A stretch of DNA of 20,000 nucleotides, from contig QPGO01000190.1 in the NCBI GenBank assembly GCA_008632985.1, positions 121,495 to 141,494 of the forward strand. Reading direction: 5' to 3'. The notes beneath the pieces are model-generated. The model was given only the letters and a program-made list of their open reading frames with translations. It searched no databases and was not told the DNA's origin. Source of the stretch: Psammoneis japonica. Taxonomy: Eukaryota. This document shows, piece by piece, positions 2,175-20,000 of the stretch. The position numbers and the translations under genes were made by a program. The stretch's first letter is position 1; every line of letters begins with the position of its first letter.

Positions 2175-2295
2175 AACACGACAAGACACAACATGACACG
2201 ACACGACAAGACACGACACGACACGACACGACAAGACATGACACAACAAGACACGACACGACACAACACGTCACGACACGACGACTCACGACTCA
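2175..2295 (+). repeat. (ACACG)n-type pentanucleotide microsatellite inside the TIR element
   Basis: acacgacaagacacaacatgacacgacacgacaagacacgacacgacacgacacg... Confidence 0.9.
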
Positions 2296-2508
2296 CGAAC
2301 GAAACACCCACGCCCCCCGCACACACCAACCGCTAACGTCTCCGTTGACACTGTGTCTCTTTTGCATGATGATGCAAAGCGACGATCATGCCGCTCTCGG
2401 CGGTCTCCAATGTTTCATCCACAATCTCGTGGAGACGGCACGTCCACACGACTGGGCACTTCTGAATGTTGGGGAGCGTTGCATTATCGGCATGTCGCAA
2501 ACGTCCGT

Positions 2509-2692
2509 CTGTCGGCGTTTGTCGGCTCTTGTTGGCGTTTGTCGGCTCTTGTTGGCATTTGTCATACGTTGTCGGGGTTTGTCGGGGCTTGTCGGGGTTT
2601 GTCGGGGTTTGTCGGATGCGACAAAATTTGTCGCACGTCCGACAAAATTTGTCGCACGTCTGACAAAATTTGTCGCATCCGGCAAAATTTGT
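2509..2692 (+). repeat. 10-bp (TGTCGGGGTT-like) tandem units followed by three to four ~21-bp units containing the near-palindrome CGACAAAATTTGTCG
   Basis: tgtcggcgtttgtcggctcttgttggcgtttgtcgg...; then cgacaaaatttgtcgcacgtc repeated at 2619-2692. Mirror copies of the motif occur at 2097-2170. Confidence 0.85.
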
Positions 2693-4886: not shown

Positions 4887-5864
4887 ATGTCGAAACCACC
4901 GGCTGCCAAGCGCCTTTGCGTAGACTTCTCAAGCACTGTGTTTGAGCTTGTCATTGGTAGTGGATTCTTTCCATGGTATGAGTTGAATGATGAGTGCCGC
5001 GTCGTTTCAAAAGGTTGGAACGAGGCCATTTCGACGGCGTTGAACAACGCGCCATTCTTTAAACAACTTGTTGAGCACATTGGCAAGCTCAATTGCTGCA
5101 ACAAGTGTGAATGGTGCAACCAGATTTATAGTGAAAAAAGTCGTCATGTATTTTGTATGACAAATGCTGGCAGTGATGAAAGGGCTCTAAAGGAGAAGGA
5201 TCCGCGCTGCCAAGATTCGTTCGATTCGCTTTCTAGCTTTGAGAAGGCGAGGCGATTGTATCTATTCCATGCAAAATGCATTTCCAACCTCCTGTCATTC
5301 TATGGAGAAGAGCTCTCTATAGAGGAATCGCTCTGTGCCCGCTATTGCATTCCTCATGATTGGTTCTGTGGCATGACCAGTCTTCGCGATTACAATCCAA
5401 ATGCCCATTGGCTCTTCATGGGCCTCGTCGAGCTACACATTGCCAAGATCGACTTGGCGCAAGGAACTTACTGGTATAAGCCTGCCTTTGCTGGTAGAGA
5501 ACGTAGTGCTGGGCGATTCACTGGGTCTTCCTATTATGGTTGGACTCACGACATTGTATTAGAAAAGCTCAACGGCGCTCCCCACGAAGCGGATGAGCGC
5601 AGCTTTGATGCTTTTTATGTAACGCGACGATCAGGAGAAAGGGGACGCTGGTACAAATCACAATTCAATCATCTGGAGGATATTATCAAGGGAATGCTCA
5701 ACGAGCGTGATTTGGTGGCCGATCAGTTGCTTGGAGAACAGTTGGCGAACCGCATTGACATTATGCACAAGGCACGCGATTCCATGATTCCTCGTCTCCC
5801 CGACATTTTCCCACTCGAGTGGATGCCAGTCTTTGAAGACGACTATATGTACGCGATTCCATGA
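4887..5864 (+). CDS. Hypothetical protein, 325 aa, with a possible divergent N-terminal F-box-like motif
   Basis: Intact ATG-to-TGA ORF with normal composition (14 Tyr). N-terminal PPAAKR (NLS-like) and VFELVIGSGFFPWYELNDECRVVSKGWNE resemble the F-box '..VSK.W' signature. The domain call is weak. Confidence 0.7.
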   Translation: MSKPPAAKRLCVDFSSTVFELVIGSGFFPWYELNDECRVVSKGWNEAISTALNNAPFFKQLVEHIGKLNCCNKCEWCNQIYSEKSRHVFCMTNAGSDERALKEKDPRCQDSFDSLSSFEKARRLYLFHAKCISNLLSFYGEELSIEESLCARYCIPHDWFCGMTSLRDYNPNAHWLFMGLVELHIAKIDLAQGTYWYKPAFAGRERSAGRFTGSSYYGWTHDIVLEKLNGAPHEADERSFDAFYVTRRSGERGRWYKSQFNHLEDIIKGMLNERDLVADQLLGEQLANRIDIMHKARDSMIPRLPDIFPLEWMPVFEDDYMYAIP

Positions 5865-6076
5865 TTCCTCGACTGATGAGAGTTTCAGTGGATCATTATT
5901 TGTTTGTGAATAAGTGTCCGGGATGAATAGCGACGCGAATAATGATGCAAAGGGATTGTGCATATCACCGGCAATTTTCTGCATCGATCTAAATTGTACT
6001 ACCGTAGCTTTCGCTGTATGGGGTCGATTCGACGATAGGCTATGTAGCGATACTTGCATTGGCTTACTAGTTTAGA

Positions 6077-7769
6077 TTGTTTATATATACATATATTGAT
6101 TCTATGCTGCTGCGTCGGAAAGGAGTTGAAATGTACCCTAAACATGCTGCGGATGTTGGAACAAAACTTCCGTTGGGCACCAAATGCAATCGCTCTGTCC
6201 ACCAGCAGCGACTGCACCAGACAGCATTCCAGCGGTTGGGACGCTATGTGAGAGCTAGCGAGAGCGATTGACGGATCAGGAGCAGTGCATCTGCCAAGCT
6301 CTTTACGCTTCATGTCTCTCACGTATCGGTCAAGACGAGCTGGCAGTTGTTTCTTATGATGCGTCTCTTTCACTCAAGCAATTTCTTACCGAAGAAACAC
6401 TTCAGGAAGTTCTTCAAGGAAAGGCGAAAACTCTTCAAAGACTGATGCGCTACGAGGAAGCCAGGAATGTCTTCTTCAGAGGTCAAATAACGGGATACTA
6501 TACGTGTGCGCTGCAGCAACTTGCTCCCTTCGGTTGGGTGCTACAGAATGGGCAATCCGAGTTTTGAGCATGTTTTGTGAGGACATAAAGAATAGCAGTA
6601 GCTTTCGTGCATAGGTAATACTCGGAGCCTTATTGGCCGTTGTCGATCACGAGAATGTCGACCATGAACGAATTGGTAGACAACTTGCACAGGGAGCCGT
6701 AGCTGAGCCACTCTTCTCCTGGATACATGCAGTCTGGCAGCTAAAACACGGTGACAAGCTAGCCCTTCTTAACACGTCCGGCGAACGGCAACATAACGTA
6801 GATTGCCACTTGCTTCTGGCAAAGGCCAACCAATCACCATTTGATTTTCCTTCCTTGATCCAATTGGATAATGAGGTCATCCTTCATCGGCTGTTAGCGA
6901 GCAAAGATGACGGTTCGGATGGAAATTTCTGGCCCACTGGATTCGTGCTCCCGGAGGAGTCTGCGAAACTACGGGCGCATATTGCTGATTCTCAAGCCAT
7001 GTCATCTTTGCATAATCTCAAGACGTGGATTCTGAAGAAACCATGTGGATACGGATCTCATGGCAACAAGTTGGTTACAAGTACTGAAGCAATCCAGACC
7101 TCTGAGAAAATGCTGCCGGGTCAAAGATGCCTTTGCCAACTAATGGTAGAGCCGCCTTTGCTTATTGAGGGCAGGAAGTTTTCATTGCGGATTTACGTTG
7201 TATACTTTTCGGAGTCCGCTTCAGGTGACGACCAATGTGGATATCTTTTTGTCTCGGACCAGGGTTTAGTTAAACTTGCTTCTGTCCCCTACGAAATTGG
7301 ACAAGATAGAAATGACGATCGAGCTCACATGACGAATTCTGGTCGAGAAGAGGCCATGACCAAGCAAGACTTAGTGTATCTCCGAGGGAATTTTGACAAA
7401 TGAGGCTTCCATTACAGCAAATTCTGGGTTTGCACATACAAATCGATACCATCAGTCATAGGAAGTTACGTCAAGAATATAATGGTAGAGGGAACGGTAT
7501 CCTATCGGTCTCGACTTGCCACTTTTGGAACCCCCAAAATCTTGGGCTTTGACTACGTGCTCGACGCTAACGCCACACCGTTTTTGATCGAGGTCAATCG
7601 CTTTCTCAGCCGGGAAGCAAGGGACAGAGGTGAAAAGTCTGTCAAGCGTAGAGTGGTTTTGGATGCATGGTTCTGTGCTGCCGACATACTTGGTGTGGAT
7701 CCATGGGATTGTTTAGGGATACAGCATCAACTGCTGAGTATAGACACCTTTCATCACGGCGCCAGTTAG
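6077..7769 (+). pseudogene. TPR plus tubulin-tyrosine-ligase (TTL/TTLL, ATP-grasp) family gene, disrupted
   Basis: TTL motifs WILKKPCGYGSHG, CQLMVEPPLLIEGRKFSLRIYVV, GLVKLAS, HMTNS and ILGFDYVLD..PFLIEVN are present. An in-frame TGA at 7401-7403 separates same-frame ORFs 6633..7403 and 7482..7769. Upstream fragments in other frames include TPR-like KAKTLQRLMRYEEARNVF. The 5' boundary is uncertain. Confidence 0.82.
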
Positions 7770-8593
7770 TCACCAAACAAACCGCAGTCTTCAACGTGCT
7801 TCCCGCTTTCAAACCCTTTTGCCGATGTTAGATTTACCAACCTCCTGTCCGTATCCTCCGCCTTCACTAGCGTGCCTTCTTCGTGAGAAGTGTGGAAGAA
7901 TTGTCGGAGTATCTCATCCAGTTCATCGTATTCATTAAGTGCCGTCGTCGTGTTAGCCTCACACGCTAGGTGAGCGTAGTCGAGGAAAGTGACACTACGT
8001 TCACCGCGATCTTCTTGCGCTATCGCATAGTGAAACATATCTCTCTCCGCCTTGCCAACACAATAAATTGACACGGTTGGAAACGGCTCTATGGCACAGA
8101 AGGAAGACTTGTTGACAACGACAAAACGTGGAGGCGATGAAGGGGGGTGCCCGATGGCTTCTTGATCTATGATCTCCTGAACAAAACGAACTCTAAGCCA
8201 CAAACTGGATGTCACATTGAGATCAATAGCCTCCCAAATCTCATACAGACTTAAGTTTCAATTAGGAGCCCAGAAGCCCAAGCGTACCTGCGTTGCTTAT
8301 TAGTATGGCACGATCAAATCAACTGAATGAAGAAGATTCCTCTTCCAGAATTTATCCAGCTCGGAAAGGTCAAATGCAATTTCCCCAAATTCGAGTGTGT
8401 GATGAGCTTGTGTTTCGTTTGGAAGGAGTCTTTCAGTCTCAAACAAATCGTCCCGCGACCGCACTACGAGAGACACTCGAATGATGGATATTTCATCAGA
8501 AGCATTTTTAACAAAAGAAGCTGCGATGGCACGTCCAATCCCTCTTGAGGTCCCAGTAGCAATAACTAGCATGGATGACACAATGCGAATCAC
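7766..8593 (-). pseudogene. Sepiapterin-reductase-like short-chain dehydrogenase pseudogene, copy 2
   Basis: VIATGTSRGIGRAIA (Rossmann TGxxxGxG), frameshift near 8300 into LISNAGTLG followed by a stop, then NVTSSLWL, VVNKSSFCAIEPF, IYCVGKAERDMF (YxxxK) and FESGKHVED. These match the sepiapterin reductase pattern (YCAGKAARDM; FxSGxHVD). Confidence 0.85.
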
Positions 8594-8806
8594 AACGCCA
8601 CCATTTCTTCACAACGAGATCAACTCCAATGTGTTTTGCGACGGACGCGTTGTGACGGCCTCTTCGGTCTAACTTGCCAAGCTGGAAGAGCGAGAGAAGC
8701 GCGCTATCCTTATAAAATTACTCGACTGAAATCAATGACTCACCATAATGTACGGTGGTAGCAACATCGAAAAAAGGTTAACTTCTTCAGGCTTCAGAAG
8801 ACGAAT

Positions 8807-9981
8807 CTAGTACCCATCCGGCCACTGGACAGGAAGCATCTTGTCATCGAAACACTTCCCTTCATCTAACCCGGTACCCCAGGTAACTCGCTTGGCAAGA
8901 ATTTGGACGCCAGCTTGTTCAGCTTTACGAAGATACTTGCAAAGGAAGGACAAGCTTCGTGGTTCGGTCGAAAGGATTCGGCATCGCCTCTAATCACAAC
9001 AAATAACACGGTGGTTTTGTATCGTTCACCATTTTCCCCGCGCAGTGTGCCTTTAGCAATGCGAGTGAGCTCTTGGACGTGGTGTATGGCACGAGCCGAG
9101 ACAACCTTTTCGCCATCTGGTCCTTTTTGATTTGATTTACCCCAAGGGAATATAGCTGTTCTGCTGTACGGCTGCTGATCGCTTGCAAAGATGCACTTTA
9201 GCTTTTCAGGATTTGGTAGAGCTGAGGAAGCATAGTCGGTGTCTACCACGGTTTTCACTTCAACAATACGCTTCGTGCCATCCAACTGAGTCACTAAGAA
9301 ATCACTGCGCATATTTGCTCCGCATGGATTTCGGATTTGTGTTTGAATGCTGGACATGCGAGGCAAGTCAGGAATCAGATTGTTGCGCAGCCAGGTCTCG
9401 GCAATGCGTTCTCCAAGAGACGGGTGTGCGCCAACCCATGTGGGAGGATAAAGCGTCGGTTCGAGGTGGGATTCGTCAACGAGCAGTAATTGAGTAATGA
9501 ACTCACACTTTGGCGTTCCGTACTTGGGAGAGACTGCGTCCGCACCAATTTTTACGCCATTTCGACCACGAGCAGGCTTAAGCAAGAGCGAGGCGCCGGG
9601 AACACACTTACCACCCATGTCAAGATTTGGTACATGCGCGATGGCTTCACGTTGTTCAGCTTCGAGCCATACGTCAGCAACATATGGGCTCCTGTTGCGC
9701 TTGGAAGGCCGAGCTGTCAATTTCGCCTCAACAAGCTCCTCATCTACGGCAAGGGAGAACAGAGGATCTCGACACCCGTCGCAATCCGTTGAAATGATCG
9801 GTTCAGGAGACGCCGCCCCTCCTTTTTTCATCGTCCCCCCCAATTGAGAAGTCCTCGCCTTTTTGGCTGCGACTTTTCTTGTCACACTCGAGCGGCGCGT
9901 AGAAACCATGACAGCGAAAGATCGACCTAAATCTAGTTCAGCGAAGAGAGCAGACGGAAGGAACAAGAGCTTGACTCTCAT
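8807..9981 (-). pseudogene. sfsA: SfsA-like (sugar fermentation stimulation protein, PD-(D/E)XK nuclease fold) gene with a 1-bp frameshift near 8937 (real lesion or sequence error)
   Basis: Motifs RPSKRNRSPYVADV, AHVPN, RSDFLV, VEVKTV, AIFP, VSARAIHHVQEL and LFVVIRGDAESFRPN. After CPSFA the SfsA-like tail continues in another frame (YLRKAEQAGVQILAKRVTWG...QWPDGY*) to a stop at 8807. The start may be at 9981 or 9909. Confidence 0.85.
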
Positions 9982-10246
9982 GCGGTTCAAGAAATGGAGG
10001 ATCGTATGAAGTCTTCGTAGTAGCAACACAGAGTCTTCTCATGCGGTACCTGACAGTCATGGGCGAGAAGTTGGGAATAAAGAATCATCAGCCGACCGCT
10101 GACGGTTGCGTGAAAGTACCGTATGCGAGATGAGATAGAGAGTAGACTCCTCTAATCTGTCGTCCATCAGGTTCTGAGTTAGTTCTTGAATTTTCCCGAC
10201 CCCGCCTCCTCCCCCCAAACTCCCCACGCTACCGCGCAAAACCTCG

Positions 10247-10462
10247 CAGCCAAGACTCTAAGCCAAGCAAGGAGAGGACCTCCTTGACTGGACCGAGAGT
10301 CACCGCGCGAATGTAGGAGCGAAATGGGTTGAAGGACGGACGACGGACGAGACGAGCGGAAACGAGGCCAGCCCAAGGGATCCCCTCATTGTCTGGCAGG
10401 ATGGGAGACACCATGGCACTGTCGGAGGCGTCTCCTGGGAGATGCCAACGATGAAAATCGAA
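10247..10462 (+). repeat. Split direct repeat A1 (216 bp)
   Basis: Identical to 18203..18418 except T10314 versus C18270 (gaatgTAgg / gaatgCAgg). Confidence 0.97.
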
Positions 10463-11385
10463 TGGCTTTTCTCCCTCTCCTGTCAGTCAATGCTGAAAAT
10501 CCCTTGCGTGGTCTGCTTGCGCAGCCGGGAGTGTCTCGTGCATTGGTGCCATTTGCCACCACGCCATTTCGGCGCTATCCTGTGGATGCACCTCCCAATT
10601 TTTTTCGCTGTTAATGCTGACTACGGTCACGCCATCTTGGCGCCATGTCATGTGGGCATTGCTCCAAATCCCGACTGGGTCCGCTTGTCAGCGGGGGCGC
10701 TTCGGCGGCCGAGGATTGCCTCGCACTCTGGCCCATTTGCCACACCTTTCAACGGTGCTTTCTTACAAGGAGTGCATCCTCATATAGACGGTCTCAGCAC
10801 CATTAAAGTCCCGCATGGGCAAATGGCAGTGTGGCTTTTTCATTCCGCCTGCCACTTTCTCCTGAACGCCCAGGTTGGGCCTTTTTCTTTTGCGGCTCTG
10901 CGGTCCATGGTCATCGCCTTCCCCCTCGGCGTGTCCAATTTTTTCCCTCTCCTGGGGACACAGCATGTTTAGGCTTGCACACCAGCACACCACAGCATCG
11001 GAATTGCCAGTTCTGTCTGGTCGATGTCAACTGCACACACACATGTGCATTCCCGCGAGGGTTTGGTCAAAACGAAATTTGCCACCACGTTTCGGGGTTT
11101 TTCGTCTTCTCGCGAAATGCGCGCCATCACGATGATGAATGGTGATGGAAACTGACCCGTCACATGGGGATGAAACTTGGATTTCTTTCTTGTCTCCATT
11201 CATTGGACAAGCACAGGAATCGCGAAGGGTTGCGTTCGCGGAACTGACACGGTGTCAGTCAACGCTTGTCCTTCTCGAGCAATTTCCACACGCTGGTGTC
11301 CTTCACTTTCCGGTGAGATTGCTCTCACTTTTCCTTTTTTGCGATCGGACGAGCCTTTAGTTTTCTGCTGCCCTGTTGTTCCACC

Positions 11386-13663
11386 ATGAACCAAGCCCAC
11401 GCTGCTGCCATCAACCGCGGCAAGCTCTCCGCTGCAAAGCGGTGCTCCGCCGCTTTGCCCTCCTCCACGGGTGCGATCGAGTCTGTCTCAACTGCTGTCC
11501 ACCGTGACACCCAGAAGGAGCTACGAGACCATGTCTTCGCGACCTCTGACCTTTTCTACGCGGTCCACAATCGCAAGATTGCGGTTGTGGCGAAACCTCG
11601 CCCCAGGCAGCACGCCGATGGGAATCTAAAGTGGATCGGGAGCCTCTCGGATGCGATCGGCGAGGTCATCCCGATGTCTGGTAGTTGGACTCGTTTCCAA
11701 GGCCATGCAACCACTCTAGTCCCCCAGGGCACTGTGGACACTTGTCACCTGCCCAAGTGCGAACTCAGCCCTGACGAGATTGACGGTCCCGTTGGCAACG
11801 ACGGCAACAACGTGCCGGCGTCGATGGGTCGTCTCCATTTTGGGAATCCTTCCGGACCGGCAGAGCGTCCCTCCATCGTCGCGCTCCCGATGTTCCTGCC
11901 AATCCCAACGGGCGTCACCCTTCCTGCTGACTTCGACCCAGCAGATCCCCCGGCATCCCTTGCCACTGACTTTCCGCTTGGAGCGGTTTGGGCTCAGGGC
12001 ATGTCCTGGTTGCTTCAGCACAACGCTTCTGTCTCTGTCACGGAAGGCGGCCCCATGTTTGAGCAGAATGGCTTTGCAATTGTCGATGAGTTTGCAGGCC
12101 TCGAGATCTGTGATCTCGACAACAATGACGCACAGATGCTCCAACCTCTGACGGATTGGTGTGCACCAGTCAAGACCACGATGGACGCCTTTGCAGATGA
12201 GACCTGGAGGCAACTCGGTGGAGAAGAGCCCGCGCAGATGCAAGCTCCCGCCGCCCCAGCCCAAGGTGCCAATGGACAGGTTCCGAACTGTGCCATCCAT
12301 GTCCCACGCCAGGACTCGAAGAAAGAGTCAGACCAGAAGCTGAGGGCGCGCGACATTGGTCACCGCTGGTCACTCTGTGCGTTCCGAGCGACTGCTGGTG
12401 CAGGTCCGGAGGACCCGCCTGTGATCATCGTGGGCGAGCTTACGGACCAAGCGGCTGAGATTCTTCAGGACACGTCGGCTGCCAATGCAAACCGTGACCT
12501 CGCGGATCTTGTTAAGATGGCTGTTGTTGCATCAGCCCGTGGTGACAGCAGTCTAGACGCTGGGGTCGACTGCAAGTGCACCATCGTCAACAAGGCCTGC
12601 ACGGACTGTTTCCACGGCTTTAATGTGGTTGCGGAGCCCCCGCAGCATGGCCAGGCTTCGCACCGCACGAAGCTGTCTGTCCTTCCTTTTCTTCCCCCGA
12701 AGACTGCATCATCTTCATTTGCTGGTCTCGAGGACGAAGGGAGGGTGCTCCATCGGGTGCTTGCCAATGGCTCCGACTGCAAGATCCCCGATGACGTGAA
12801 GGCAAGCAACCTTTGTGTCCAAGGAAGGATGGACACCGCCAGCAATCTGTGGTCAGTGCTTTGCAACTTTTGCTGTGTCCTTGGATGCTGGATCAAGGAC
12901 TTCGACAATGCGGAGCTGTGGAAGTCCCTGGATGCGCACGCAAAGGTTCTTTGGTCGCACCCGGGCCGCACGTGGCTCAAGAATCTCGAGGACCCCAAAC
13001 CAGTCGTCGCCAGCATCCCAGACAATTTCCAGACTATCATCAAAGTCCACTTTGAGATCGGAGACTCTCCATTGTGCCGTCAGGCGGTAGAAACCGAGCG
13101 TCCACTGAGCCATCAGATGGCAAAGGACGCTCGCACTCTGGTCGTCCCTCATTGCGGACCTCAAAACCGCGATCACGCGGGGCAAGCCTCTGGCCTTTGC
13201 GGAGGCATCTACGTTGGCCCTTGTCCCCCTGGGCAACTCTGTGTTCCTCCCTGCTAGCAGAACGAAGGATGATGCGACCAAGTCTGGTCAACCTCCGAAT
13301 GAGAAGCTGCGCACGGGGGAAACAGATGACAAAACCGCCAAGCTCTGCAAGGCGATGGGCATGCTCAATTTTTCGGGCACGAAGCGGCTCCCGACCAGCC
13401 CCGTTTTCTACAAGAAGCGAGGATCAGATCAGGAGGAACGTTTCTGCATGTGCTTTTGCACTGAGGGGCACTTCTGCAAATTCCCCAACTGCCCGAAGCC
13501 CCACCCATCGTCACTCTCCAAGATTCCGAGTGAAAAGAGGGATGCCTTTTGCCAATTTGTCAAAGACACCCCGGGACTCGATTTTGTTCCTGGCAAGGGC
13601 CCAGACGGTGCGTCCCAATCAGGTTCGAATGTTCCTAGTCTGTGCACTGCACCCTGTTGCTAA
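11386..13663 (+). pseudogene. gag: Gag-like ORF1 of the YR retrotransposon, frameshifted at ~13145, with a C-terminal CCCH-like zinc finger
   Basis: First long ORF of the element (11386..13257). Protein-like sequence continues in the frame of ORF 13214..13663 (LIADLKTAITRGKPLAF...RFCMCFCTEGHFCKFPNCPKPHP). The assignment rests on position and the Cys/His finger. Confidence 0.75.
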
Positions 13664-13744
13664 TGCAGTGTTGTCCAAAACTGTTCTGTTTTTCACTCTC
13701 GATTAGTCTACGTTATCCCTGACAGGTCCGTTCGTCTCATCGCA

Positions 13745-16606
13745 ATGGATGTCGACGACGACAGCGATCAGGAGTGCGAGGTGATCGATGCAGAGCAAGA
13801 CGAGACCGGAATGAGTGTCGCTGAAGCCATCCCAGCTGTTGATGCTGCACTTGCCACGTCGGTGAAGGAGCCGCACCCGAGCCTGTGCCGAGGTGCGGTC
13901 ACGCCGCAGCCTCCCGTCAACGAGAATGAGCTGATCGAGCCATTCCCCACCTTCTCCATGGTCCACAAGAAGAAAGGGACCGATTTGATTCCTACAATCA
14001 ATGACGGCTTCAATGAGAAGGCACGTGAGCACTTTGCCAATGCGGAACCATCGCCGGGCATGCGTGCTAAACTGGACCAAAAATTCGGCAAGGAAAACTT
14101 GAATCAATGTTTCTTGTCGGAAGCGTGTTTGCGTCATGTGTTGCCACCGCTGTTGAAATCTGGGTGCATGTCGCCACCGGTTGATTGCATGAGTGACTCA
14201 TCTGCCCAAATCGTCTTTGGGGGTGATTGGGAGAACTTCGGAGCGGCCATCCCGGAAGCAGCCGAGCCCATGAGCCTGGTCCGGGAATGTGGCGACATCG
14301 ACTTTAATCCTCTCCAAGGCTGCCCCGAGGGATGGCAAAAAGAGACAACGGTCAGTGTGGATAGAGCTGCGATGACAACTGCCGCGTTGTTGCATTTTGA
14401 TGGTGACCCAGCAAACCTCGTTCGCTGGGTTGGCGGACCGCACGTCGGTGAACACAGACACACGCAGAAAATGCTCCGCTTTCTACAAGGTCGTGCACCC
14501 GACGAGACAACAGCACACGTTCGCCGCATCTTCCAAGACGGGGCGCCAGCGAAATGCAACACTGCTTTCACTGAAGCCAACTTCCAAGCAGCTCTCAAGT
14601 GTGGAAACCACAAGACCGTCGACGCTGCACCTGACAAAACATTGGCGGCAGTCGCCAAGGACAATCGCAAGGGTTTCACGCCACTTTTTGACCAGCGTCT
14701 GGTGCCGCACTTGCTGAACTGCCATCTCACTCCTCAGGGGATGGTGGACCTTGACAAGAAATGCAAGAGTCCACGCCCCATCTTCGACAGCACGATGCGA
14801 GCGACTCCGGGTGGCATGGCAATCAACGATGCGTTGGACCTCAAGCACGAACCGCCGATCACGTTCCCATCAGCGGAAATGGACTTTGTGGTGTGGACAT
14901 GGAACATGAGAACATCCCACCCACACGAGGAGATCCACCTCGGCGATGATGATGTGAGTGGCGCTTTCCGCAACCTGAAGCACCACCCGAACCTCGTCGG
15001 GATGCATGCCAGCGTCCAGTGTGGACTGGGCGTCCTGCAGACGGGTTGTGCCTTTGGCGATGAGACCAACCCAAGCAACTGGGACGCTGTTGCCAATGCA
15101 AGACAATGCCTTGCTCAACAATTCTGGCTGGTGCCCAACGTGGTGGAACTCACCCAGCAGTGTCTCCCGACGACATCATTCGCCGAACCTCCTGCAGCTG
15201 AAGAGGCAGCGTCATTCTGTCCTGCGGAAGCAGACGCTGTCAATCCGGGCATGTTCCTAGATGGCTGCCGTTTGCCACCAACATGCAAGCACCACGTTGA
15301 CGATGACTTCTACGGAGACATGCATGACTTGATGAAAAGAACAGTCGCTGCGAGCGCCCTGGCCGTGTGCGTTTTGTTGGGCTTCCCACGCGATGAAACT
15401 CCGGATTTCCCAAGCAAAGAGAAACTGGACACACTGTGCTCACATCTCCGACGAGCCCTGGGAAGGCACTTCAACTCAAGAGCGCTGTCGGTGGGAATGC
15501 TCCCATGCAAACGAGAACAGTTCCTTGAAACTTTGCGAGAATGGCGCGACAAACAACGGCACACACTGTTGGATGCAGCAAACCCAAATGGTCAATGTGA
15601 ACTCCATGCGCGGTGTTGTCCATGGGCTCGGCCGAATTTTTTTGCACTCCAGAACTCCACGCGGCGGGCCATGGTCGTCCAATGCGCCATTGTCAAACAA
15701 ATCATGGAGCGACAAAATTTCAAATTAAATTTTGAAACTCAACTGCCGAGTCATCTCAGAAATGGGCCACCGAGCTTGCTCGCGCGCACACAGGCCCAGC
15801 TCCTCTGTCAGCTGAAGACCGAGATCCCGATGACATCCAATGTCATTGATGTGACAAAGGACACAGTGTCCTACATCGAATCAACGCCAGACCCATGGTC
15901 AGCACCGATTGGATGTGTCACACCGCAAGTGCCACATTGCCAGGCAATTGGAGACGCCAGCAACGCAGGCGGAGGAGCCCACTGCGCAGAACTCAAATTT
16001 TGGTTCGCATTTCTTTGGGGACCAAAAACAGCGAAAGGGCTCCGGCTGAGGAAGGCCTCCGACCCAGTGCATGTCCATGTCAACACAGCAGAGTTTGTTG
16101 TCATCACACTCAAGCTGGCAGCTGTGATTGTCCGCATGGAGACTGTGACCCGAGAACGGGCCCATGAGTTCTTCCGGAACGGCGTCGTCCCACTGCACCT
16201 GGTCGTCAGGAGTCGTTCAGACAACATGGTGTCGGTCAACCGGTCCAACAAAGCAACGTCAAAGTCGCCACAGGGGCAACGATTTGTCTGGGTCTTCTGC
16301 AAATTGCTCCACCGTGCTCGTGCCAACTTCAACGGAGATCACATCTTTGGCGACGAAAATTTTGTTGCCGACGATGTCTCACGACCTTCTGTTTTTGCCT
16401 TGATCTCGCATCGCACCCATTCTGAACAGCTGTTTCGGAAGTGTCCCTTTCTGAAGACCTGGGACTGTTTCCAGCCGAGTCAAGAGCTGCTGCAGCTCCT
16501 CTCCTCACAGCTGTCTGCCAAGCACAGAATGGCACCCCAGATCCCAAGCGACTTGGGACAGCTCGTTCCCGCAGAATCCATTTCCTCTGCTTTTGTAAGA
16601 GTGTGA
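13745..16606 (+). CDS. pol: Reverse transcriptase plus RNase H (open frame, heavily mutated)
   Basis: RT motifs PRPIFD, DDDVSGAFR, GCAFGDETNPSNW and HHVDDD. DIRS-type RNase H motifs GDASNAGGGA, HVNTAEF, RSDN and HIFGDENFVADDVSR. Confidence 0.93.
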   Translation: MDVDDDSDQECEVIDAEQDETGMSVAEAIPAVDAALATSVKEPHPSLCRGAVTPQPPVNENELIEPFPTFSMVHKKKGTDLIPTINDGFNEKAREHFANAEPSPGMRAKLDQKFGKENLNQCFLSEACLRHVLPPLLKSGCMSPPVDCMSDSSAQIVFGGDWENFGAAIPEAAEPMSLVRECGDIDFNPLQGCPEGWQKETTVSVDRAAMTTAALLHFDGDPANLVRWVGGPHVGEHRHTQKMLRFLQGRAPDETTAHVRRIFQDGAPAKCNTAFTEANFQAALKCGNHKTVDAAPDKTLAAVAKDNRKGFTPLFDQRLVPHLLNCHLTPQGMVDLDKKCKSPRPIFDSTMRATPGGMAINDALDLKHEPPITFPSAEMDFVVWTWNMRTSHPHEEIHLGDDDVSGAFRNLKHHPNLVGMHASVQCGLGVLQTGCAFGDETNPSNWDAVANARQCLAQQFWLVPNVVELTQQCLPTTSFAEPPAAEEAASFCPAEADAVNPGMFLDGCRLPPTCKHHVDDDFYGDMHDLMKRTVAASALAVCVLLGFPRDETPDFPSKEKLDTLCSHLRRALGRHFNSRALSVGMLPCKREQFLETLREWRDKQRHTLLDAANPNGQCELHARCCPWARPNFFALQNSTRRAMVVQCAIVKQIMERQNFKLNFETQLPSHLRNGPPSLLARTQAQLLCQLKTEIPMTSNVIDVTKDTVSYIESTPDPWSAPIGCVTPQVPHCQAIGDASNAGGGAHCAELKFWFAFLWGPKTAKGLRLRKASDPVHVHVNTAEFVVITLKLAAVIVRMETVTRERAHEFFRNGVVPLHLVVRSRSDNMVSVNRSNKATSKSPQGQRFVWVFCKLLHRARANFNGDHIFGDENFVADDVSRPSVFALISHRTHSEQLFRKCPFLKTWDCFQPSQELLQLLSSQLSAKHRMAPQIPSDLGQLVPAESISSAFVRV

Positions 16607-17682
16607 AGTGGCATCTGGGAGATCCGGAAATGACTGTGATTGGCAAGGACCCAAAGTGCTGCCAACTGGTGCCAGCCATGTGTGCTTTGCATCTAGCTAG
16701 CGGCTCCACTCTCTGCTGCAAGAACATCTCCTCAGGTGCCATCAAGGAACATGTCCATGACATGTCAACGTTCGTGTCTCCACTTGGTTCCACGTGTCGG
16801 GACGTCCGCAAAGACAACAGCGTGGACACCAAGATGGGGTGGATCCTCAGGGGAGCATTCGATGAACTCCAACGGTGCGAGAAAGTCCCGGAAAGGCGCG
16901 AGTCACACACGTTGCTCATGCAGCAACGAGCGACGTCGACAGCAGACACTGTGCGAGAAACCGACCCGGATGCGATCGAAGTGGTCCTCGCTGACTGGTT
17001 TGAGATTGGGCCAATGGCCGGCTTGCGAAGTGTTGAATGGGCCCAATCCAATGAACACTCAGAACTGGAGAATCCAAGGCTGAACATCTTTGAGGAGACC
17101 TGCGCGTTCTGCCTCGACGACGTCCGATGCGAGACAAAAGACAAGCGCCGACACACCGGGGCGGATTGTCTTGTCCCCAAGCAAGAGGATGTCGAAAGCA
17201 TGCGTGTCATGTTCCGAGCTCAGAAGAACATGCACAATGGCGAGGAATGCCAGTTTGCTGTGAACCTTGATGGCAAGCACGACTTGGCAAAGCCGATGCT
17301 TCGCGTTGTCCGACGTTTCGTGCGGGTCCGTGGCAAGGACGACAAGATCTGCCCCCTTGCTCTCTACTTTGATCCAGAGAAGGGCAAGCACCGTCTCGTC
17401 ACGTCCAAGAAAATCGAGACCCACATGCGCCGAATTGCCGCAGAAGTGCACCACCTCGACCCGGTGAAAGACAAGAAAGCTCTTGGCAAATGGTCGGCTC
17501 ACTCCCTCCGTGTTGGAGCCTGTAATGTCCTTCACGAGATGAACTTTAGTGGCGAGCAGATTAAATGGCTGCTCAGATGGCGATCTGATGCCTTTGTGGC
17601 TTGTCTCCGCAACTGCCTGGGTCTTTCCCAGGCCCATTGTCGAGCTCTCGACAAGGCGGCACCCATGCCGTTCTTCGATTAA
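16441..17682 (+). CDS. Tyrosine recombinase (open frame; catalytic Tyr position is Cys), overlapping the RT/RH 3' end
   Basis: GLRSVEW (catalytic R), AQKN (K), HSLRVGA (HxxR) and LLRWRSDAFVACLR (W, plus the expected nucleophile Tyr seen as TGT at 17602-17604). The true start is uncertain. Confidence 0.92.
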   Translation: MSLSEDLGLFPAESRAAAAPLLTAVCQAQNGTPDPKRLGTARSRRIHFLCFCKSVKWHLGDPEMTVIGKDPKCCQLVPAMCALHLASGSTLCCKNISSGAIKEHVHDMSTFVSPLGSTCRDVRKDNSVDTKMGWILRGAFDELQRCEKVPERRESHTLLMQQRATSTADTVRETDPDAIEVVLADWFEIGPMAGLRSVEWAQSNEHSELENPRLNIFEETCAFCLDDVRCETKDKRRHTGADCLVPKQEDVESMRVMFRAQKNMHNGEECQFAVNLDGKHDLAKPMLRVVRRFVRVRGKDDKICPLALYFDPEKGKHRLVTSKKIETHMRRIAAEVHHLDPVKDKKALGKWSAHSLRVGACNVLHEMNFSGEQIKWLLRWRSDAFVACLRNCLGLSQAHCRALDKAAPMPFFD

Positions 17683-17950
17683 TTCCTTTGTGCGGATTCA
17701 ACACATCCCCTTTCCATGTGTCCTCTCTGCGTGACATAAAATCGCACACTGTTGTCCCATTGCATCTGAAATTTCAATTTTGAAATTCGAAATTTGATCC
17801 TGGCAACGTGATCGCACACATGTGTTCAGGAGGAACATTTGTTCCTCCATCATGTCTGAAGAAAATAGATTTTTTTTTCCGGCTGGCTCTGCCTCCGATG
17901 ACATGGGCGCGTTCGCAATGCTTCCAGCATTCCGCGTCGGCAGCATGGTG

Positions 17951-18201
17951 TGCACACAGTGAAAAAGGGAACCAATTGCTTGGCACTGGCGATTCCAAGC
18001 CTGGCCCCACATCCTAATTGCTTCACCTGCTGGCGACTGTTTTCATCGTGGCAACAACATGAGTCTACACACGGACATGAGCACTGCGCATGTCACAGAT
18101 GACACCAATGTGTTGCATCGACAGATGAGAGACGCTTCCACTGTGCCATGTCATCAGAGTGCAGACAGCCGAGGCGGAGGCAGGGAATCCATGGGATTCT
18201 C
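17951..18201 (+). repeat. Split direct repeat B1 (~251 bp)
   Basis: Gap-free alignment to 18438..18688 with about 23 differences, all transitions. Confidence 0.95.
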
Positions 18202-18202
18202 A

Positions 18203-18418
18203 CAGCCAAGACTCTAAGCCAAGCAAGGAGAGGACCTCCTTGACTGGACCGAGAGTCACCGCGCGAATGCAGGAGCGAAATGGGTTGAAGGACGGACGAC
18301 GGACGAGACGAGCGGAAACGAGGCCAGCCCAAGGGATCCCCTCATTGTCTGGCAGGATGGGAGACACCATGGCACTGTCGGAGGCGTCTCCTGGGAGATG
18401 CCAACGATGAAAATCGAA
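18203..18418 (+). repeat. Split direct repeat A2
   Basis: 215/216 identical to 10247..10462. Confidence 0.97.
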
Positions 18419-18437
18419 AACCCACCACTCCCTCCCC

Positions 18438-18688
18438 TGTGCACAGTGAAAAAGGGAACCAATTGCTTGGCACTGGCGATTCCAAGCCCAGTCCCATGTC
18501 CCAATTGCTTCACCTGCTAGCGACTGTTTTCATCGTGGCAACAACATGAGTCTACACACGGATGTGAGTGCTGCGCATGTTGTAGACGACACCAATGTGT
18601 TGCATCGACAGACAAGAGACGCTTCCACTGTGCCATGTCATCGGAGTGCAGACAGCCGAGGCGGAGGCAGGGAATCCGTGGGGTTCCC
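18438..18688 (+). repeat. Split direct repeat B2
   Basis: Gap-free copy of 17951..18201 (offset 487). Confidence 0.95.
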
Positions 18689-19063
18689 CCTGTGGTGCAG
18701 TGGGGGAGCTGTGTGTGTGTGCGTGTGGTTGTGTGCACACGGCTTCGCCGTGCGTTGAGTTTTAATGTTAATGTCCACACGCACGTGCATGTTCCACAAG
18801 CAAAAATTCCTGTTCCACAGCTCCCCTAAAACTCTAACCACCAAAAACCGAGGGGTTGGAAGCGCACTTTCGGGAGCTCTTTTTCTCCGCACAAAAAACA
18901 CGCGTTTCGTCGACTCGACCATGATGATGCCTCGTGGTTCTTCCCCATCGCCTTCCCAGGACGCCGATCCCACTGACACCGTTGCCAATGACACTGATGC
19001 AACAGGTGATGTCATTGTTCCGGTTCTCGTGGGTGTGATGCGCACAAAATAAGATGCTGCAAA

Positions 19064-19575
19064 CTCACACTGTTGTTTGCATGCTCCACCGCCTCCCACA
19101 GATGCTGTCACGAATTCCAACACCGCACCTGCGTTTCGGGCCCCCAGCATGCCCGATGCTGTCACTCCCACCCTTGCTGCTGCAGGCGCTGTTGATGCTG
19201 TCACTGTGTTTTGCCAATGACGTCCACAATGAAATGTCAACATCTCACACTTCTTTCATTCTCGCCCCACCGCCTCCCACAGACACCATCACGAATTCCA
19301 ACACCGTGCCTGCGTTTCGGCCCCCTGGCATGCCCGACACTGTCACTCCTGCCCTCACTGCCGCAGGTGCTGTTGATGCTGTTGTTGTCTTTTTGCCAAT
19401 GACGTCCACAACGAAATGCTTGTAACTCACACTTCTTTCATTCTCGCCCCACCGCCTCCCACAGATGCTGTCACGAACTCCAATGCCGCACCTGCGTTTC
19501 GGCCCCCTGGCATGCCCGACACTGTTGGTCCCACCCTTGCTGCTGCAGTTGCTGTTGATGCTGTCATTGTTTTTG
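19064..19575 (+). repeat. Three diverged tandem units of ~180-182 bp in a TpA-depleted block
   Basis: Units start at ctcacac (19064, 19244, 19426), and each contains ccaccgcctcccacaga...cctgcgtttcgg...gcatgcccga...gctgttgatgctgt. Confidence 0.9.
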
Positions 19576-20000
19576 CTTTGGAAGGAACACAATGGATGAC
19601 GGATGACGGCAGACCAGGAAACCCACGCAACCACGGCCTGCTGATGGACGACACATCAATGGACATGAGTGGTGCCTCTTGGTCAGCTCTCGAGTGCAGT
19701 CCAATCTTTAGAACACACAGACACATTGTGCAGCTCTCTGTAAATTAGAAACCTGACAACAATTGGATGGCAGGCATGCTTTCACAGTTTTTTAGTTTCA
19801 AGTTGGAGAGGTCAGCGAACTGGCATTTGTTTGCAGGCGACTTGGCAAGGTTTCAAATGGTGCATGTGACTTGGACACTGCTCTATTTTCCAGGACTGGG
19901 TCATTGTGCACAACTCCATAAGAGGCCACTCTCGCCGTTTGAACTCTGCATGTGATGCACAACACACTGTTTTTGTGTGTTGCCAAAATGGAGGCAGGCA

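Follow-up and report, generated by a model that had tools for sequence, protein, structure and literature searches.

The repeats of a retrotransposon in a diatom genome appear to record hypermutation directed at TA dinucleotides. The best overall explanation of our observations, to which we give a probability of roughly 0.75, is that the window (the whole 20,000-nucleotide stretch of Psammoneis japonica DNA analysed here) belongs to the nuclear genome of a diatom and carries a tyrosine-recombinase retrotransposon of 8.4 kb, arranged as A1, gag-like ORF, reverse transcriptase/RNase H, recombinase and B1-A2-B2, and that this element underwent TA-targeted A:T-to-G:C hypermutation after B1 and B2 were last identical. 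According to this explanation, A:T pairs would have been changed to G:C specifically inside TA. Since TA reads identically on both strands, TG would result if the adenine of the top strand was hit, and CA if that of the bottom strand was. The same ancestral TA sites in B1 and B2 would have been hit independently, and hits on opposite strands would leave CA in one copy facing TG in the other (a swap). About 86% of the TA sites would have been converted in each copy. The process would have respected borders, stopping close to the element's 5' edge and sparing neighbouring host genes and non-coding flank, and would also have marked two other repetitive or non-coding stretches of the window. It presumably acted on integrated double-stranded DNA, probably through deamination of adenine, and might protect the genome against repeats or foreign DNA.

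Architecture and identity of the element

The features of the element and its surroundings are collected in Table 1.

Table 1. Features of the window, in order of position (position 1 is its first nucleotide)
Feature	Position	Strand	Basis or remark
Left-hand TA-depleted island, non-coding, inverted-repeat structure	1100-4850	.	TA counts
TA-normal host domain, internal control	5000-10180	.	TA 0.40-0.79 of expectation
TTL-family ORF in host domain	6633-7403		Pfam
SfsA ORF in host domain	8866-10029	-	Pfam
Right-hand TA-depleted island, element and repetitive 3' flank	10182-20000 (window end)	.	TA counts
A1, 5' terminal repeat of the element	10243-10462	+	99% identity to A2
ORF1, possibly gag-like	11386-13257	+	Open frame, 623 aa
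Putative reverse transcriptase/RNase H ORF	13745-16606	+	Open, 953 aa; fold match
Putative tyrosine-recombinase ORF	16441-17682	+	Overlaps end of reverse transcriptase ORF; fold match
B1, internal copy of B repeat, abuts A2	17951-18198	+	Repeat search and gapless comparison
A2, internal copy of A repeat	18199-18418	+	Repeat search and gapless comparison
Spacer between A2 and B2, 19 nt	18419-18437	+	Seen in sequence
B2, 3' terminal repeat	18438-18685	+	Repeat search and gapless comparison
Three tandem 182-nt units, 3' flank	19028-19572	+	Repeat search; differ by CA/TG swaps

The proteins of the element are highly diverged. For ORF1, a Pfam search gave no match; tblastn matches were obtained in 18 related loci at 21-32% identity, and the ORF1 counterparts in the relatives L020 and L073 had only weak matches to CCCH zinc fingers (E = 0.13 and 0.023, respectively). 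The next ORF has 77 homologues (35-46% identity), none of which carries a Pfam domain, and its own Pfam and PDB sequence searches were without a match. Its AlphaFold model (pLDDT 74), in turn, resembles the reverse transcriptases of foamy virus, CaMV, Ty3, XMRV and MMLV with probabilities of 0.99-1.00, and the best 10 PDB fold matches all belong to reverse transcriptases of retroviruses, caulimoviruses and Ty3 within the same probability range, so that the predicted assignment to reverse transcriptases is one by fold. Similarly, neither Pfam nor PDB sequence searches matched the third ORF, the model of which (pLDDT 82) is similar to Cre, Tn1549 integrase, XerH and lambda Int (probability 0.95-1.00). 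In an alignment of 25 recombinase sequences R196, H354, R357 and W380 do not vary, and at least 90% of the sequences have Y388; judging from its position, Y388 is likely to be the catalytic residue.

Split direct repeats, of which the internal ones are located downstream of the recombinase, were found both in the window and in its relatives L020, L069, L073, L078 and L056, and in relatives a gap of 15-18 nt separates the A2 and B2 matches at the place of the spacer. The arrangement A1-B1-A2-B2 is the one by which Ngaro/PAT-type elements of the DIRS order are defined in the accessible text of PMC4157794; there, too, split direct repeats go together with a reverse transcriptase and a tyrosine recombinase, and the internal repeats lie downstream of the latter. 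The present element has the split repeats and, as predicted from fold, both enzymes. It differs from Ngaro/PAT-like elements in that its proteins have diverged beyond the reach of Pfam or PDB sequence searches, and only fold comparison identified them. According to the same text, a methyltransferase domain is present in PAT and DIRS1 and absent in Ngaro and Viper. None was seen in Pfam searches or among the 47 fold matches listed, the first ~300 residues of the reverse transcriptase ORF being without assignment; the lack of this domain would point to Ngaro rather than PAT. A single sequencing run contained the element (share 0.54); no RNA run was listed for it. As many as 887 contigs of one run align on the element, which indicates many diverged copies.

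Differences between the repeat copies

The repeat search aligned B1 17955-18199 with B2 18442-18686 at 92% identity and A1 10243-10462 with A2 18199-18418 at 99%. Gapless comparison of the B copies at an offset of 487 gave 20 differences within 17955-18199, all of them transitions, and extending the same register to 17951 added a CA/TG swap at 17953-54. Over the entire repeat, B1 (17951-18198) and B2 (18438-18685) differ at 22 of 248 positions by 22 transitions and 0 transversions, with no gaps. An earlier note on this DNA had reported about 23 differences, all transitions; their nature is thus as described and their number is 22. The seven CA/TG swaps lie exactly where that note had listed them (B1 17953, 18002, 18010, 18076, 18082, 18094 and 18126). 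At three further sites TA is opposed to CA or TG (18015, 18032, 18096) and at three others CG is opposed to TG or CA (18100, 18156, 18191), both as previously claimed, and the remaining transitions are two (18005, 18196) instead of three. Targeting of TpA is therefore not exclusive, as B contains these three CpG-type and two other changes.

As a control pair we used a duplication from that portion of the window where TA is normal (1-900 vs 7646-8480). Its copies show 124 differences, made up of 63 transitions and 61 transversions, and 0 swaps. At the transition ratio of this pair the probability of 22 transitions out of 22 is 3e-7; if the share of transitions among contigs of the family (79%) is used instead, it is 0.006. 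Of the events in B, 7 of 15 are swaps, and of those in the control pair none of 122 (Fisher p = 4e-8). TA is scarce in both copies, with 2 occurrences in B1 (13.6 expected) and 3 in B2 (13.3 expected). In B1, TG and CA reach 1.87 and 1.82 of expectation; in B2, a pyrimidine follows 73% of TG, the pyrimidine base content being 47%. Among the 40 of 1866 differences listed for other copies, all of which lie outside B, 8 of 31 change events are adjacent CA/TG double changes.

The A repeat behaves differently from B. A1 and A2 differ at 2 of 220 positions only (10246, CG/CA; 10314, TA/CA), a divergence significantly lower than that of B (Fisher p = 7e-5). A1 has 2 TA vs 8.2 expected, and the repeat displays no enrichment of CA (0.82-0.92 of expectation). 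We attribute the near-identity of A1 and A2 to the small number of TA targets in A. Indeed, the low divergence would fit only if A had very few of them, which is plausible; in relatives A is poorer in TA than B, and in L020 A has 5 TA and B 23. Outside TA, the repeat copies diverge at 6 of 468 positions (~1.3%). From the repeat pairs we estimate that TA might mutate roughly 150-fold faster than other sites, or ~450-fold if CpG changes are left out.

Loss of tyrosine codons

The same direction of change is seen in the coding sequences. Tyrosine makes up 0.3% of ORF1 and 0.2% of the reverse transcriptase ORF, the latter compared with 1.8-4.3% across all 77 homologues. At 14 columns where relatives conserve tyrosine, the element has kept 2 and replaced the others by Cys (six), His (five) and Trp (one), with codons TGY, CAY or TGG; 11 of the 14 positions now read TGY or CAY. 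One of nine such columns is kept in the reverse transcriptase ORF (Cys at four, His at three, Trp at one) and one of five in the recombinase ORF (Cys and His at two each). The residues lost include recombinase residue 388, where all 27 relatives have Tyr and this copy has Cys (TGT). Conserved arginines fared much better, with 34 of 42 columns kept (Fisher p = 1.4e-5 vs tyrosine). Changes of TA to CA or TG cannot create stop codons, and for this reason the reading frames, including the 953-aa reverse transcriptase ORF, remain open while conserved tyrosines vanish. The extent of TA loss is the same in B (86%) and at the conserved Tyr codons (12/14, 86%). A further candidate, a Tyr-to-His change from YVDD to HVDD in the reverse transcriptase motif, was rejected, as HVDD is invariant across the family.

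Polarised changes in a related copy and sequence context

L039, one of the relatives, could be polarised against its sister copies. Out of its 64 ancestral TA sites, 21 are still TA, 14 have become CA, 27 TG and 2 TT, so that 41 of 64 went to CA or TG; together with the 22 of 22 transitions in B, changes are almost only A-to-G or T-to-C. The four sister copies keep 71-90% of ancestral TA. Private changes at ancestral TA amount to 32/103 in L039 vs 1/58, 3/101, 1/104 and 7/75 in the sisters, whereas retention of CG is similar (73% in L039, 66-75% in the sisters). Since L039 was hit and L021, 92% identical to it, was not, there is a hint of episodic, copy-specific action.

Conversion depends on the flanking bases. 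Among surviving TA, the context purine-TA-pyrimidine accounts for 1 of 55 in the element and 1 of 59 in L039, compared with 30% in 13 unmutated relatives, and pyrimidine-TA-purine for 47% and 37%, respectively, compared with 16% in the same relatives. Polarised sites in L039 lead to the same conclusion: 11 of 12 purine-TA-pyrimidine sites turned into CA or TG and the twelfth into TT, whereas 0 of 8 pyrimidine-TA-purine sites were converted (p = 7e-5). Such a preference fits a target that, on each strand, is roughly 5'-T-A-pyrimidine. The context is not absolute, as only 4 of the 7 swap sites are purine-TA-pyrimidine (flanking bases read by eye), CTAC often survives, and seven pyrimidine-TA-pyrimidine sites in L039 became CA.

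Regional limits

Within the window, TA depletion is confined to two islands (0.0-0.38 of expectation), as opposed to 0.4-0.8 in the host domain. In 500-nt windows, TA stands at 0.00-0.38 of expectation from 10501 onward in the right-hand island and at 0.00-0.24 from 1001 to 5000 in the left-hand one. The host flank has nine TA in 10047-10230, the dense run of which ends at 10180; after that TA becomes sparse (10230, 10259, 10314, 10576). Upstream of 10182, four contigs of the sequencing run are no longer similar to the window. Both host genes have named relatives in diatoms only. A dinoflagellate host, with 5-hydroxymethyluracil at TpA, was considered and rejected on this ground and because a 15-nt piece of the dinoflagellate spliced leader had 0 matches in the window when up to 2 mismatches were allowed. 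Across the two codon phases that include position 3 (2-3 and 3-1), TA is at 0.44-0.74 of expectation in three host ORFs and at 0.05-0.30 in the ORFs of the element.

The signature extends beyond the element. The left-hand island has 24 TA vs 231 expected between 1200 and 4800, along with TG at 1.71 and CA at 1.67 of expectation, and contains an inverted repeat with arms at 1836-1918 and 2860-2942. In the 3' flank, the tandem 182-nt units also differ by swaps, pointing to action in place: there are 8 swaps among 28 differing positions between units 2 and 3, 9 swaps between 1 and 2, and 4 between 1 and 3, and TA is common to no pair. Three ORFs in the left-hand island and the 3' flank had no match in a Pfam search.

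Timing and strand of the changes

The earlier note had argued that the changes postdate insertion and affect both DNA strands, against editing of the RNA intermediate. That they postdate the last identity of B1 and B2 is supported by relatives: in all five with both repeat pairs on the contig (L020, L069, L073, L078, L056) B1 and B2 are 100% identical, though these are metagenome assemblies, which may collapse repeats; A1 and A2 are 100% identical in four of them and 98% in L056. As to the strands, editing of sense RNA alone is excluded because T-to-C changes in the sense strand are about as common as A-to-G, while deamination of unintegrated cDNA is only made unlikely.

A broader version of the latter possibility is that an adenosine or deoxyadenosine deaminase, or an error-prone reverse transcriptase, altered RNA or unintegrated cDNA in the most recent round of retrotransposition, at a time when both B1 and B2 existed as distinct segments. 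We consider this quite unlikely. In its favour, the 5' limit of TA depletion coincides with the edge of the element or lies no more than about 60 nt from it, and the 5'-T preference recalls ADAR as characterised in the accessible part of the Bigelowiella natans preprint; in the system described there, however, the mutations arose anew in integrated DNA (10.64898/2026.01.13.699255). Both strands were hit at comparable frequencies (Tyr-to-His 5 vs Tyr-to-Cys 6; CA 14 vs TG 27 in L039), and the same signature occurs outside the element, in tandem repeats that diverged in place and in the inverted-repeat structure. The near-identity of A1 and A2, although A is TA-poor, might seem to speak for this scenario, but A1 and A2 are also separate stretches in cDNA, so that it is explained no better.

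The TA hits could also be real but older than the insertion, if a hypermutated parent was copied in trans and only A was made uniform, or if B2 was imported by recombination or gene conversion. This would account for A diverging ten times less than B, and many diverged copies are available for exchange. It also agrees with the loss of conserved tyrosines, including the one present in all 27 recombinase relatives, from which it follows in our interpretation that this copy cannot move itself. We nonetheless find such a history rather improbable, as the identity of B1 and B2 in the five comparable relatives suggests that B is kept uniform, the layout and the spacer match those of relatives, the number of targets explains why A and B differ, and TA loss in B is the same as at the conserved Tyr codons, as it should be if the entire element was hit after the last identity of B1 and B2. 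Hypermutation following the last identity of B1 and B2 thus remains the preferred reading.

Ancestry of the swap sites

The earlier note had proposed that the swap sites were originally TA rather than CG, and our models, the contrasting depletion of TA and CG, and the loss of Tyr codons all support it. With 86% loss per copy, a model of TA origin expects 0.4 retained, 4.3 half-converted and 6.4 swap sites, and the observed numbers are 1, 3 and 7 (fit p = 0.21). For the seven exact swap sites, TA ancestry is probable on the basis of models and of other parts of the element.

Ordinary methyl-CpG decay, in which the swap sites were CG and 5-methylcytosine was deaminated on opposite strands to give TG and CA, seems very improbable as their source. 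Because B has nine shared and three half-decayed CG, a uniform model of CpG decay predicts 0.09 swaps vs seven seen (P = 1e-11; goodness of fit p = 1.6e-4), and it can be rescued only by postulating two sharply different classes of CpG inside 248 nt. Observed to expected ratios in the element are 0.13 for TA and 0.84 for CG (1.32 for CA and 1.44 for TG), the codons lost are those of Tyr and not Arg, and in L039 it is the retention of TA that has collapsed, with CG retained as in the sisters. This is not to say that CpG decay is absent. Three sites in B and one in A are CG vs TG or CA, conserved Arg has changed to Gln or His at 6 of 28 reverse transcriptase columns, and in parts of the older islands CG is down to 0.25-0.36 of expectation. 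It also appears active in the family at large, since single differences listed for other copies involve CG (12) more often than TA (3). Selection against TA was rejected, since family-conserved residues are among those lost, and compensatory changes in an RNA hairpin were dropped as well, as inspection by eye revealed only a 2-bp stem and the other swap sites are without a compensating partner.

Comparison with known systems

The observed pattern has several counterparts among known systems. ADAR hyperediting and APOBEC-type editing of retroelements, as far as the available descriptions go, are likewise deaminase-like, clustered and transition-only and have a preferred 5' neighbour, which for ADAR is U or T 5' of the edited A. 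In contrast to ADAR, a metazoan enzyme acting on double-stranded RNA, the changes reported here are about equal on both strands and affect DNA other than retroelements. ADAR favours G as the 3' neighbour, whereas the 3' neighbour preferred here is a pyrimidine. APOBEC-type editing, in the descriptions available, yields C-to-T or G-to-A and not A-to-G.

The closest likeness is to TpA hypermutation of integrated giant-virus and virophage DNA in the chlorarachniophyte Bigelowiella natans. In mutation-accumulation lines of this alga, two integrated viral regions acquired 231 new mutations, of which 230 were A-to-G or T-to-C, each of these on TpA and at about 1000 times the background rate, and coding sequences depleted of TpA are enriched for reverse-transcriptase and DDE domains, according to the accessible part of the preprint (Mettrop et al., 10.64898/2026.01.13.699255). 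As here, the changes consist almost entirely of TpA turning into TpG or CpA, whichever strand is hit, the footprint consists of TpA depletion with CpA and TpG enrichment, islands of foreign DNA are affected in otherwise ordinary surroundings (here as judged within the window), and the excess in rate is two to three orders of magnitude. There are differences as well. B. natans is a rhizarian, whereas the host here is a diatom, i.e. a stramenopile, and the target is a tyrosine-recombinase retrotransposon with neighbouring repeats. TA is at 0.13 of expectation here and at 0.45 in the B. natans viral region, and the accessible text makes no mention of diatoms and contains no report of the flanking-base preference seen here. 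The evidence there comes from new mutations, whereas ours is comparative (10.64898/2026.01.13.699255).

Our full-text literature searches found no report of TpA hypermutation in diatoms. TpA-specific hypermutation of foreign DNA has so far been described in only one chlorarachniophyte, in a 2026 preprint, and the diatom looks like a second lineage. If this is the case, the process would occur widely in the major marine algae instead of being peculiar to one species. Deaminases common to both lineages would then offer a comparative lead to the enzyme, and the flanking-base preference would be a constraint that any candidate has to reproduce. Repeat pairs that start out identical, such as split repeats, can show that hits follow integration and at what pace; if the process is a defence of the kind considered below, split repeats would be built-in paired clocks for it in any genome. 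When genomes are annotated, long open frames nearly devoid of tyrosine and TA would denote dead hypermutated elements rather than genes.

Fungal RIP changes C to T mainly at CpA, thereby creating TpA and stop codons. The process described here resembles RIP in being transition-only, in being confined to repeated or foreign DNA, which it disables, in affecting both strands and in leaving a dinucleotide footprint. Its direction is the opposite: TpA is destroyed, CpA and TpG are created, and no stop codons arise, so that it does not qualify as RIP. It is tempting to speculate, at somewhat less than even odds, that diatoms possess a RIP-like genome defence of opposite chemistry, in which a strand-symmetric adenine-directed deaminase would recognise repeated or foreign DNA after integration and convert roughly 5'-T-A-pyrimidine to T-G-pyrimidine, removing almost all tyrosine codons without making stop codons, and that this defence, present in a stramenopile and in the rhizarian Bigelowiella, is ancient across the SAR supergroup and no peculiarity of chlorarachniophytes.

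Layout and coding capacity of the element

The two pairs of split repeats follow one another in the window as A1 ... B1-A2-(19 nt)-B2, with long open frames occupying the A1-B1 interval. None of these frames has a Pfam match, and a profile of the 953-aa frame finds no match by sequence in PDB; all 77 homologues of this frame are environmental, unnamed and devoid of Pfam domains. Its AlphaFold model (pLDDT 74) resembles in fold comparison the foamy-virus, CaMV, Ty3, XMRV and MMLV reverse transcriptases with a probability of 0.99-1.00, and the model of the 413-aa frame resembles Cre, Tn1549 integrase, XerH and lambda integrase. By the definitions in PMC4157794, which include split-repeat layouts, these predicted folds make the element a tyrosine-recombinase retrotransposon. 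According to the same paper, Ngaro or PAT have direct repeats that are split, the internal ones lying downstream of the recombinase, the layout seen here. No methyltransferase was seen in the element by Pfam or among the fold matches listed.

Features of the window and their positions
Feature	Position	Strand	Remarks
A repeats	10243-10462 and 18199-18418		99% identical (repeat finding)
B repeats	17955-18199 and 18442-18686		92% identical (repeat finding)
RT frame, 953 aa	13745-16606		77 homologues, 35-46% identity
Tyrosine-recombinase frame, 413 aa	16441-17682		model pLDDT 82
Three tandem 182-nt units	19028-19572		3' flank, 66-85% identical
Left TA-depleted island	1100-4850		non-coding, between two host-like regions
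SfsA ORF	8866-10029	minus	flanks element
TTL-family ORF	6633-7403		

The homology of the recombinase begins in a different frame, inside the last part of the RT ORF (16441-16606), and tblastn coordinates place the same overlap at 6518-6674 of the related metagenome locus L020. This suggests that frameshifting or overlapping translation may operate in the family. The environmental family of split-repeat retroelements (about 8.5-9.3 kb; loci L001-L079, proteins P0001-P0077) is sizeable, has HHVDD as its invariant polymerase motif, and its RT and recombinase are recognised by fold only, being missed by Pfam and PDB sequence searches. The host is a diatom: the named relatives of the SfsA and TTL-family proteins are exclusively diatoms, and SfsA is 53-63% identical to its counterparts in named diatoms, as near as several diatoms are to one another.

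Divergence of B1 and B2

At an offset of 487, B1 and B2 have 20 differences over 17955-18199, all of them transitions, and extending the same register to 17951 adds a swap (CA in one copy, TG in the other) at 17953-54. Altogether, 22 transitions and no transversions are found in 248 gapless positions: seven CA/TG swaps, three sites with TA against CA or TG, three with CG against TG or CA, and two others. The seven swaps lie exactly where the earlier note had put them; its estimate of about 23 differences, all transitions, was right as to their type, but the total is 22 and the others are two, not three. The control, a duplicated segment in TA-normal DNA (1-900 and 7646-8480) whose copies are 85% identical and separated by 7.6 kb, shows an ordinary spectrum: of 124 differences, 63 are transitions, 61 are transversions and none is a swap. 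The B1/B2 pattern, which is confirmed, is far from this background (p = 3e-7 for all differences being transitions; Fisher p = 4e-8 for the excess of swaps).

The changes had been proposed to postdate an insertion at which B1 and B2 were identical. When metagenome contigs were scanned, the RT alignment picked out 79 related loci, and those long enough have the same A1...B1-A2-B2 layout. B1 is 100% identical to B2 in L020 (215 nt), L069 (214) and L073 (203), the last within a 34.8-kb contig and flanked on both sides, and also at contig ends in L078 (127 nt) and L056 (85 nt); A1 and A2 are 100% identical in four of the five and 98% in L056. TA is at 0.70-0.78 of expectation in these five loci and at 0.29-0.86 over all 79, lowest in L039. 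This uniformity of B in lineages whose proteins are 25-35% identical to those of the window indicates that the two copies should have been the same when the element inserted, with the caveat that assembly can collapse repeats; the five relatives thus support the proposal.

B1 and B2 differ at 22 of 248 positions, A1 and A2 at only 2 of 220 (p = 7e-5), a gap plausibly explained by the number of TA targets. In the relatives, TA stands at 0.9-1.5 of expectation in B, which is rich in it, and is mostly scarcer in A; L020, the compared relative nearest to the window by protein identity and GC content, has 5 TA in A and 23 in B. In the window, CA and TG reach 1.7-1.9 of expectation in B, whereas A has no enrichment of products (CA 0.82-0.92). 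Non-TA differences (5 in B, 1 in A) are not discordant, and an arithmetic estimate from the repeat pairs puts TA turnover at roughly 150 to 450 times that of other sites.

TA as the probable ancestral state

Whether the swap sites had been TA or CG was answered from four indirect lines. CpG decay fits poorly: B has nine shared CG and only three half-decayed ones, uniform decay predicts 0.09 swaps against seven seen (P = 1e-11), and the CpG model fails even at its best fit (p = 1.6e-4). A TA model with 86% loss per copy fits the one shared TA, three half sites (TA against CA or TG) and seven swaps (p = 0.21). Over the element, observed/expected ratios are 0.13 for TA, 1.32 for CA, 1.44 for TG and 0.84 for CG. 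Among nine Tyr columns conserved in the RT alignment (60 of the 77 homologues), the window keeps one and has Cys in four, His in three and Trp in one; of five in the recombinase alignment (27 relatives; 28 taken, one with a stop codon removed), it keeps one, with two Cys and two His, and residue 388, one of these changed columns and Tyr in 27/27 relatives, is encoded here by TGT. Conserved Arg columns, in comparison, are kept in 34 of 42 cases (Fisher p = 1.4e-5), and Tyr content of the RT ORF is 0.2% against 1.8-4.3% in all 77 homologues.

The metagenome locus L039 (4101 nt), a copy of a related family, has close sisters, L021 (92%) and L011, L037 and L046 (83-84%); its RT part has 0.44% Tyr and TA at 0.22 of expectation. 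From the sisters, 64 ancestral TA are inferred, of which 21 are kept, 14 have become CA, 27 TG and 2 TT; the sisters retain 71-90% of theirs, and CG retention is similar in all five (66-75%). L039 is hypermutated at TA and its 92% identical sister is spared, so that the process acts copy by copy and is present in at least one other host. We infer that the seven particular swap sites were TA; the earlier preference for TA over CG is supported by the model comparison, composition, Tyr codons and L039.

Strand and flanking bases

The element has six Tyr-to-Cys (sense A-to-G) and five Tyr-to-His (sense T-to-C) changes, and L039 has both TG and CA outcomes. As previously claimed, both strands are changed, which excludes editing of sense RNA alone.

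TA survival varies with the flanking bases. Purine-TA-pyrimidine makes up 30% of TA in 13 unmutated relatives, but 1/55 in the element and 1/59 in L039; pyrimidine-TA-purine makes up 16%, 47% and 37%, respectively (chi-square p = 2e-10 for the element, 2e-7 for L039; p = 8e-11 for the element against the window's own normal domain). In polarised L039 sites, 11 of 12 purine-TA-pyrimidine became CA or TG and the remaining one TT, whereas 0 of 8 pyrimidine-TA-purine were converted (p = 7e-5); each of the 24 TG outcomes that were classified arose where a pyrimidine follows TA. A per-strand target of approximately 5'-T-A-pyrimidine would account for most, not all, of these data: CTAC frequently survives, only 4 of the 7 B swap sites are purine-TA-pyrimidine, and CA has replaced TA at seven L039 sites of the pyrimidine-TA-pyrimidine kind.

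Islands and borders

Measured in 500-nt steps, TA reaches 0.4-0.8 of expectation over 1-1000 and 5001-10500, and 0.0-0.38 over 1001-5000 and over the remainder of the window from 10501. Three host-domain ORFs have TA at 0.44-0.74 in codon phases spanning position 3, against 0.05-0.30 in the same phases of the element's ORFs. The non-coding host flank has nine TA in 10047-10230, a dense run ending at 10180 and sparse beyond. Within the window, depletion thus stays inside islands, whose edge is sharp, and the TA-normal host domain and this edge argue against genome-wide bias. In the single sequencing run whose contigs match the element, four contigs no longer resemble the window upstream of 10182, and 10182 rather than 10243 may be where the repeated unit starts, or else a preferred target sequence. 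Like the A2-B2 spacer, the stretch 10182-10242, beginning 61 nt before A1, is rich in C; it has one TA.

On the other side, the depleted island extends beyond B2. Contig depth summed in the final bin (18626-18900) is 4097, compared with 150-780 over the element (such sums are no copy numbers), which suggests a distinct, more abundant repeat beside or around the element. This stretch just 3' of B2 includes a GT-rich run, and loose ends of several contigs fall at 18821-18883. Further downstream, the tandem 182-nt units differ mostly by CA/TG swaps, 4 to 9 per pair, and no pair has TA in common. Such divergence in place favours a process on integrated DNA, which we infer rather than one on unintegrated cDNA. 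By eye, the units have intron-like GT...AG features. From the run, 887 contigs align with the element, showing transitions at 1478 places and transversions at 388; in the 40 of 1866 difference rows listed, all outside B, adjacent CA/TG double changes are 8 of 31 change events.

The left island has 24 TA against 231 expected (1200-4800) and is also CpG-poor in 3001-4500 (0.25-0.33). Inside it, short palindromic units are enclosed by an inverted repeat of 83 nt (arms 1836-1918 and 2860-2942), and a microsatellite with a 5-nt period lies at 2151-2302. The island is possibly a foldback or MITE-like DNA element; if so, hypermutation would not be restricted to retroelements.

Comparison with known systems

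The overall reading of the earlier note is supported, and the chemistry would be adenine deamination. A full-text search of the diatom literature for RIP, TpA or hypermutation, judged by title and abstract, gave no relevant report. Fungal RIP converts CpA to TpA; the process in the window destroys TpA and is its mirror image.

Searching for TpA with hypermutation gave one matching work, Mettrop et al. (bioRxiv 10.64898/2026.01.13.699255), whose main text lacks the words 'diatom', 'trinucleotide' and 'context'. According to that text, 302 nuclear mutations arose in mutation-accumulation lines of Bigelowiella natans, 231 of them within two integrated viral regions; 230 of the 231 are A-to-G or T-to-C, every one of the 230 on TpA, at about 1000 times the background rate and in some lines only. 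TpA-depleted coding sequences are enriched in reverse-transcriptase and DDE domains there, and an ADAT2-like deaminase is the proposed enzyme. The window case therefore belongs to a very recently described kind of process rather than a new one: the pattern is of the same kind, although the host is in another supergroup lineage. Compared with the B. natans data in the preprint's main text, depletion in the window is much deeper, and the window adds a flanking-base preference.
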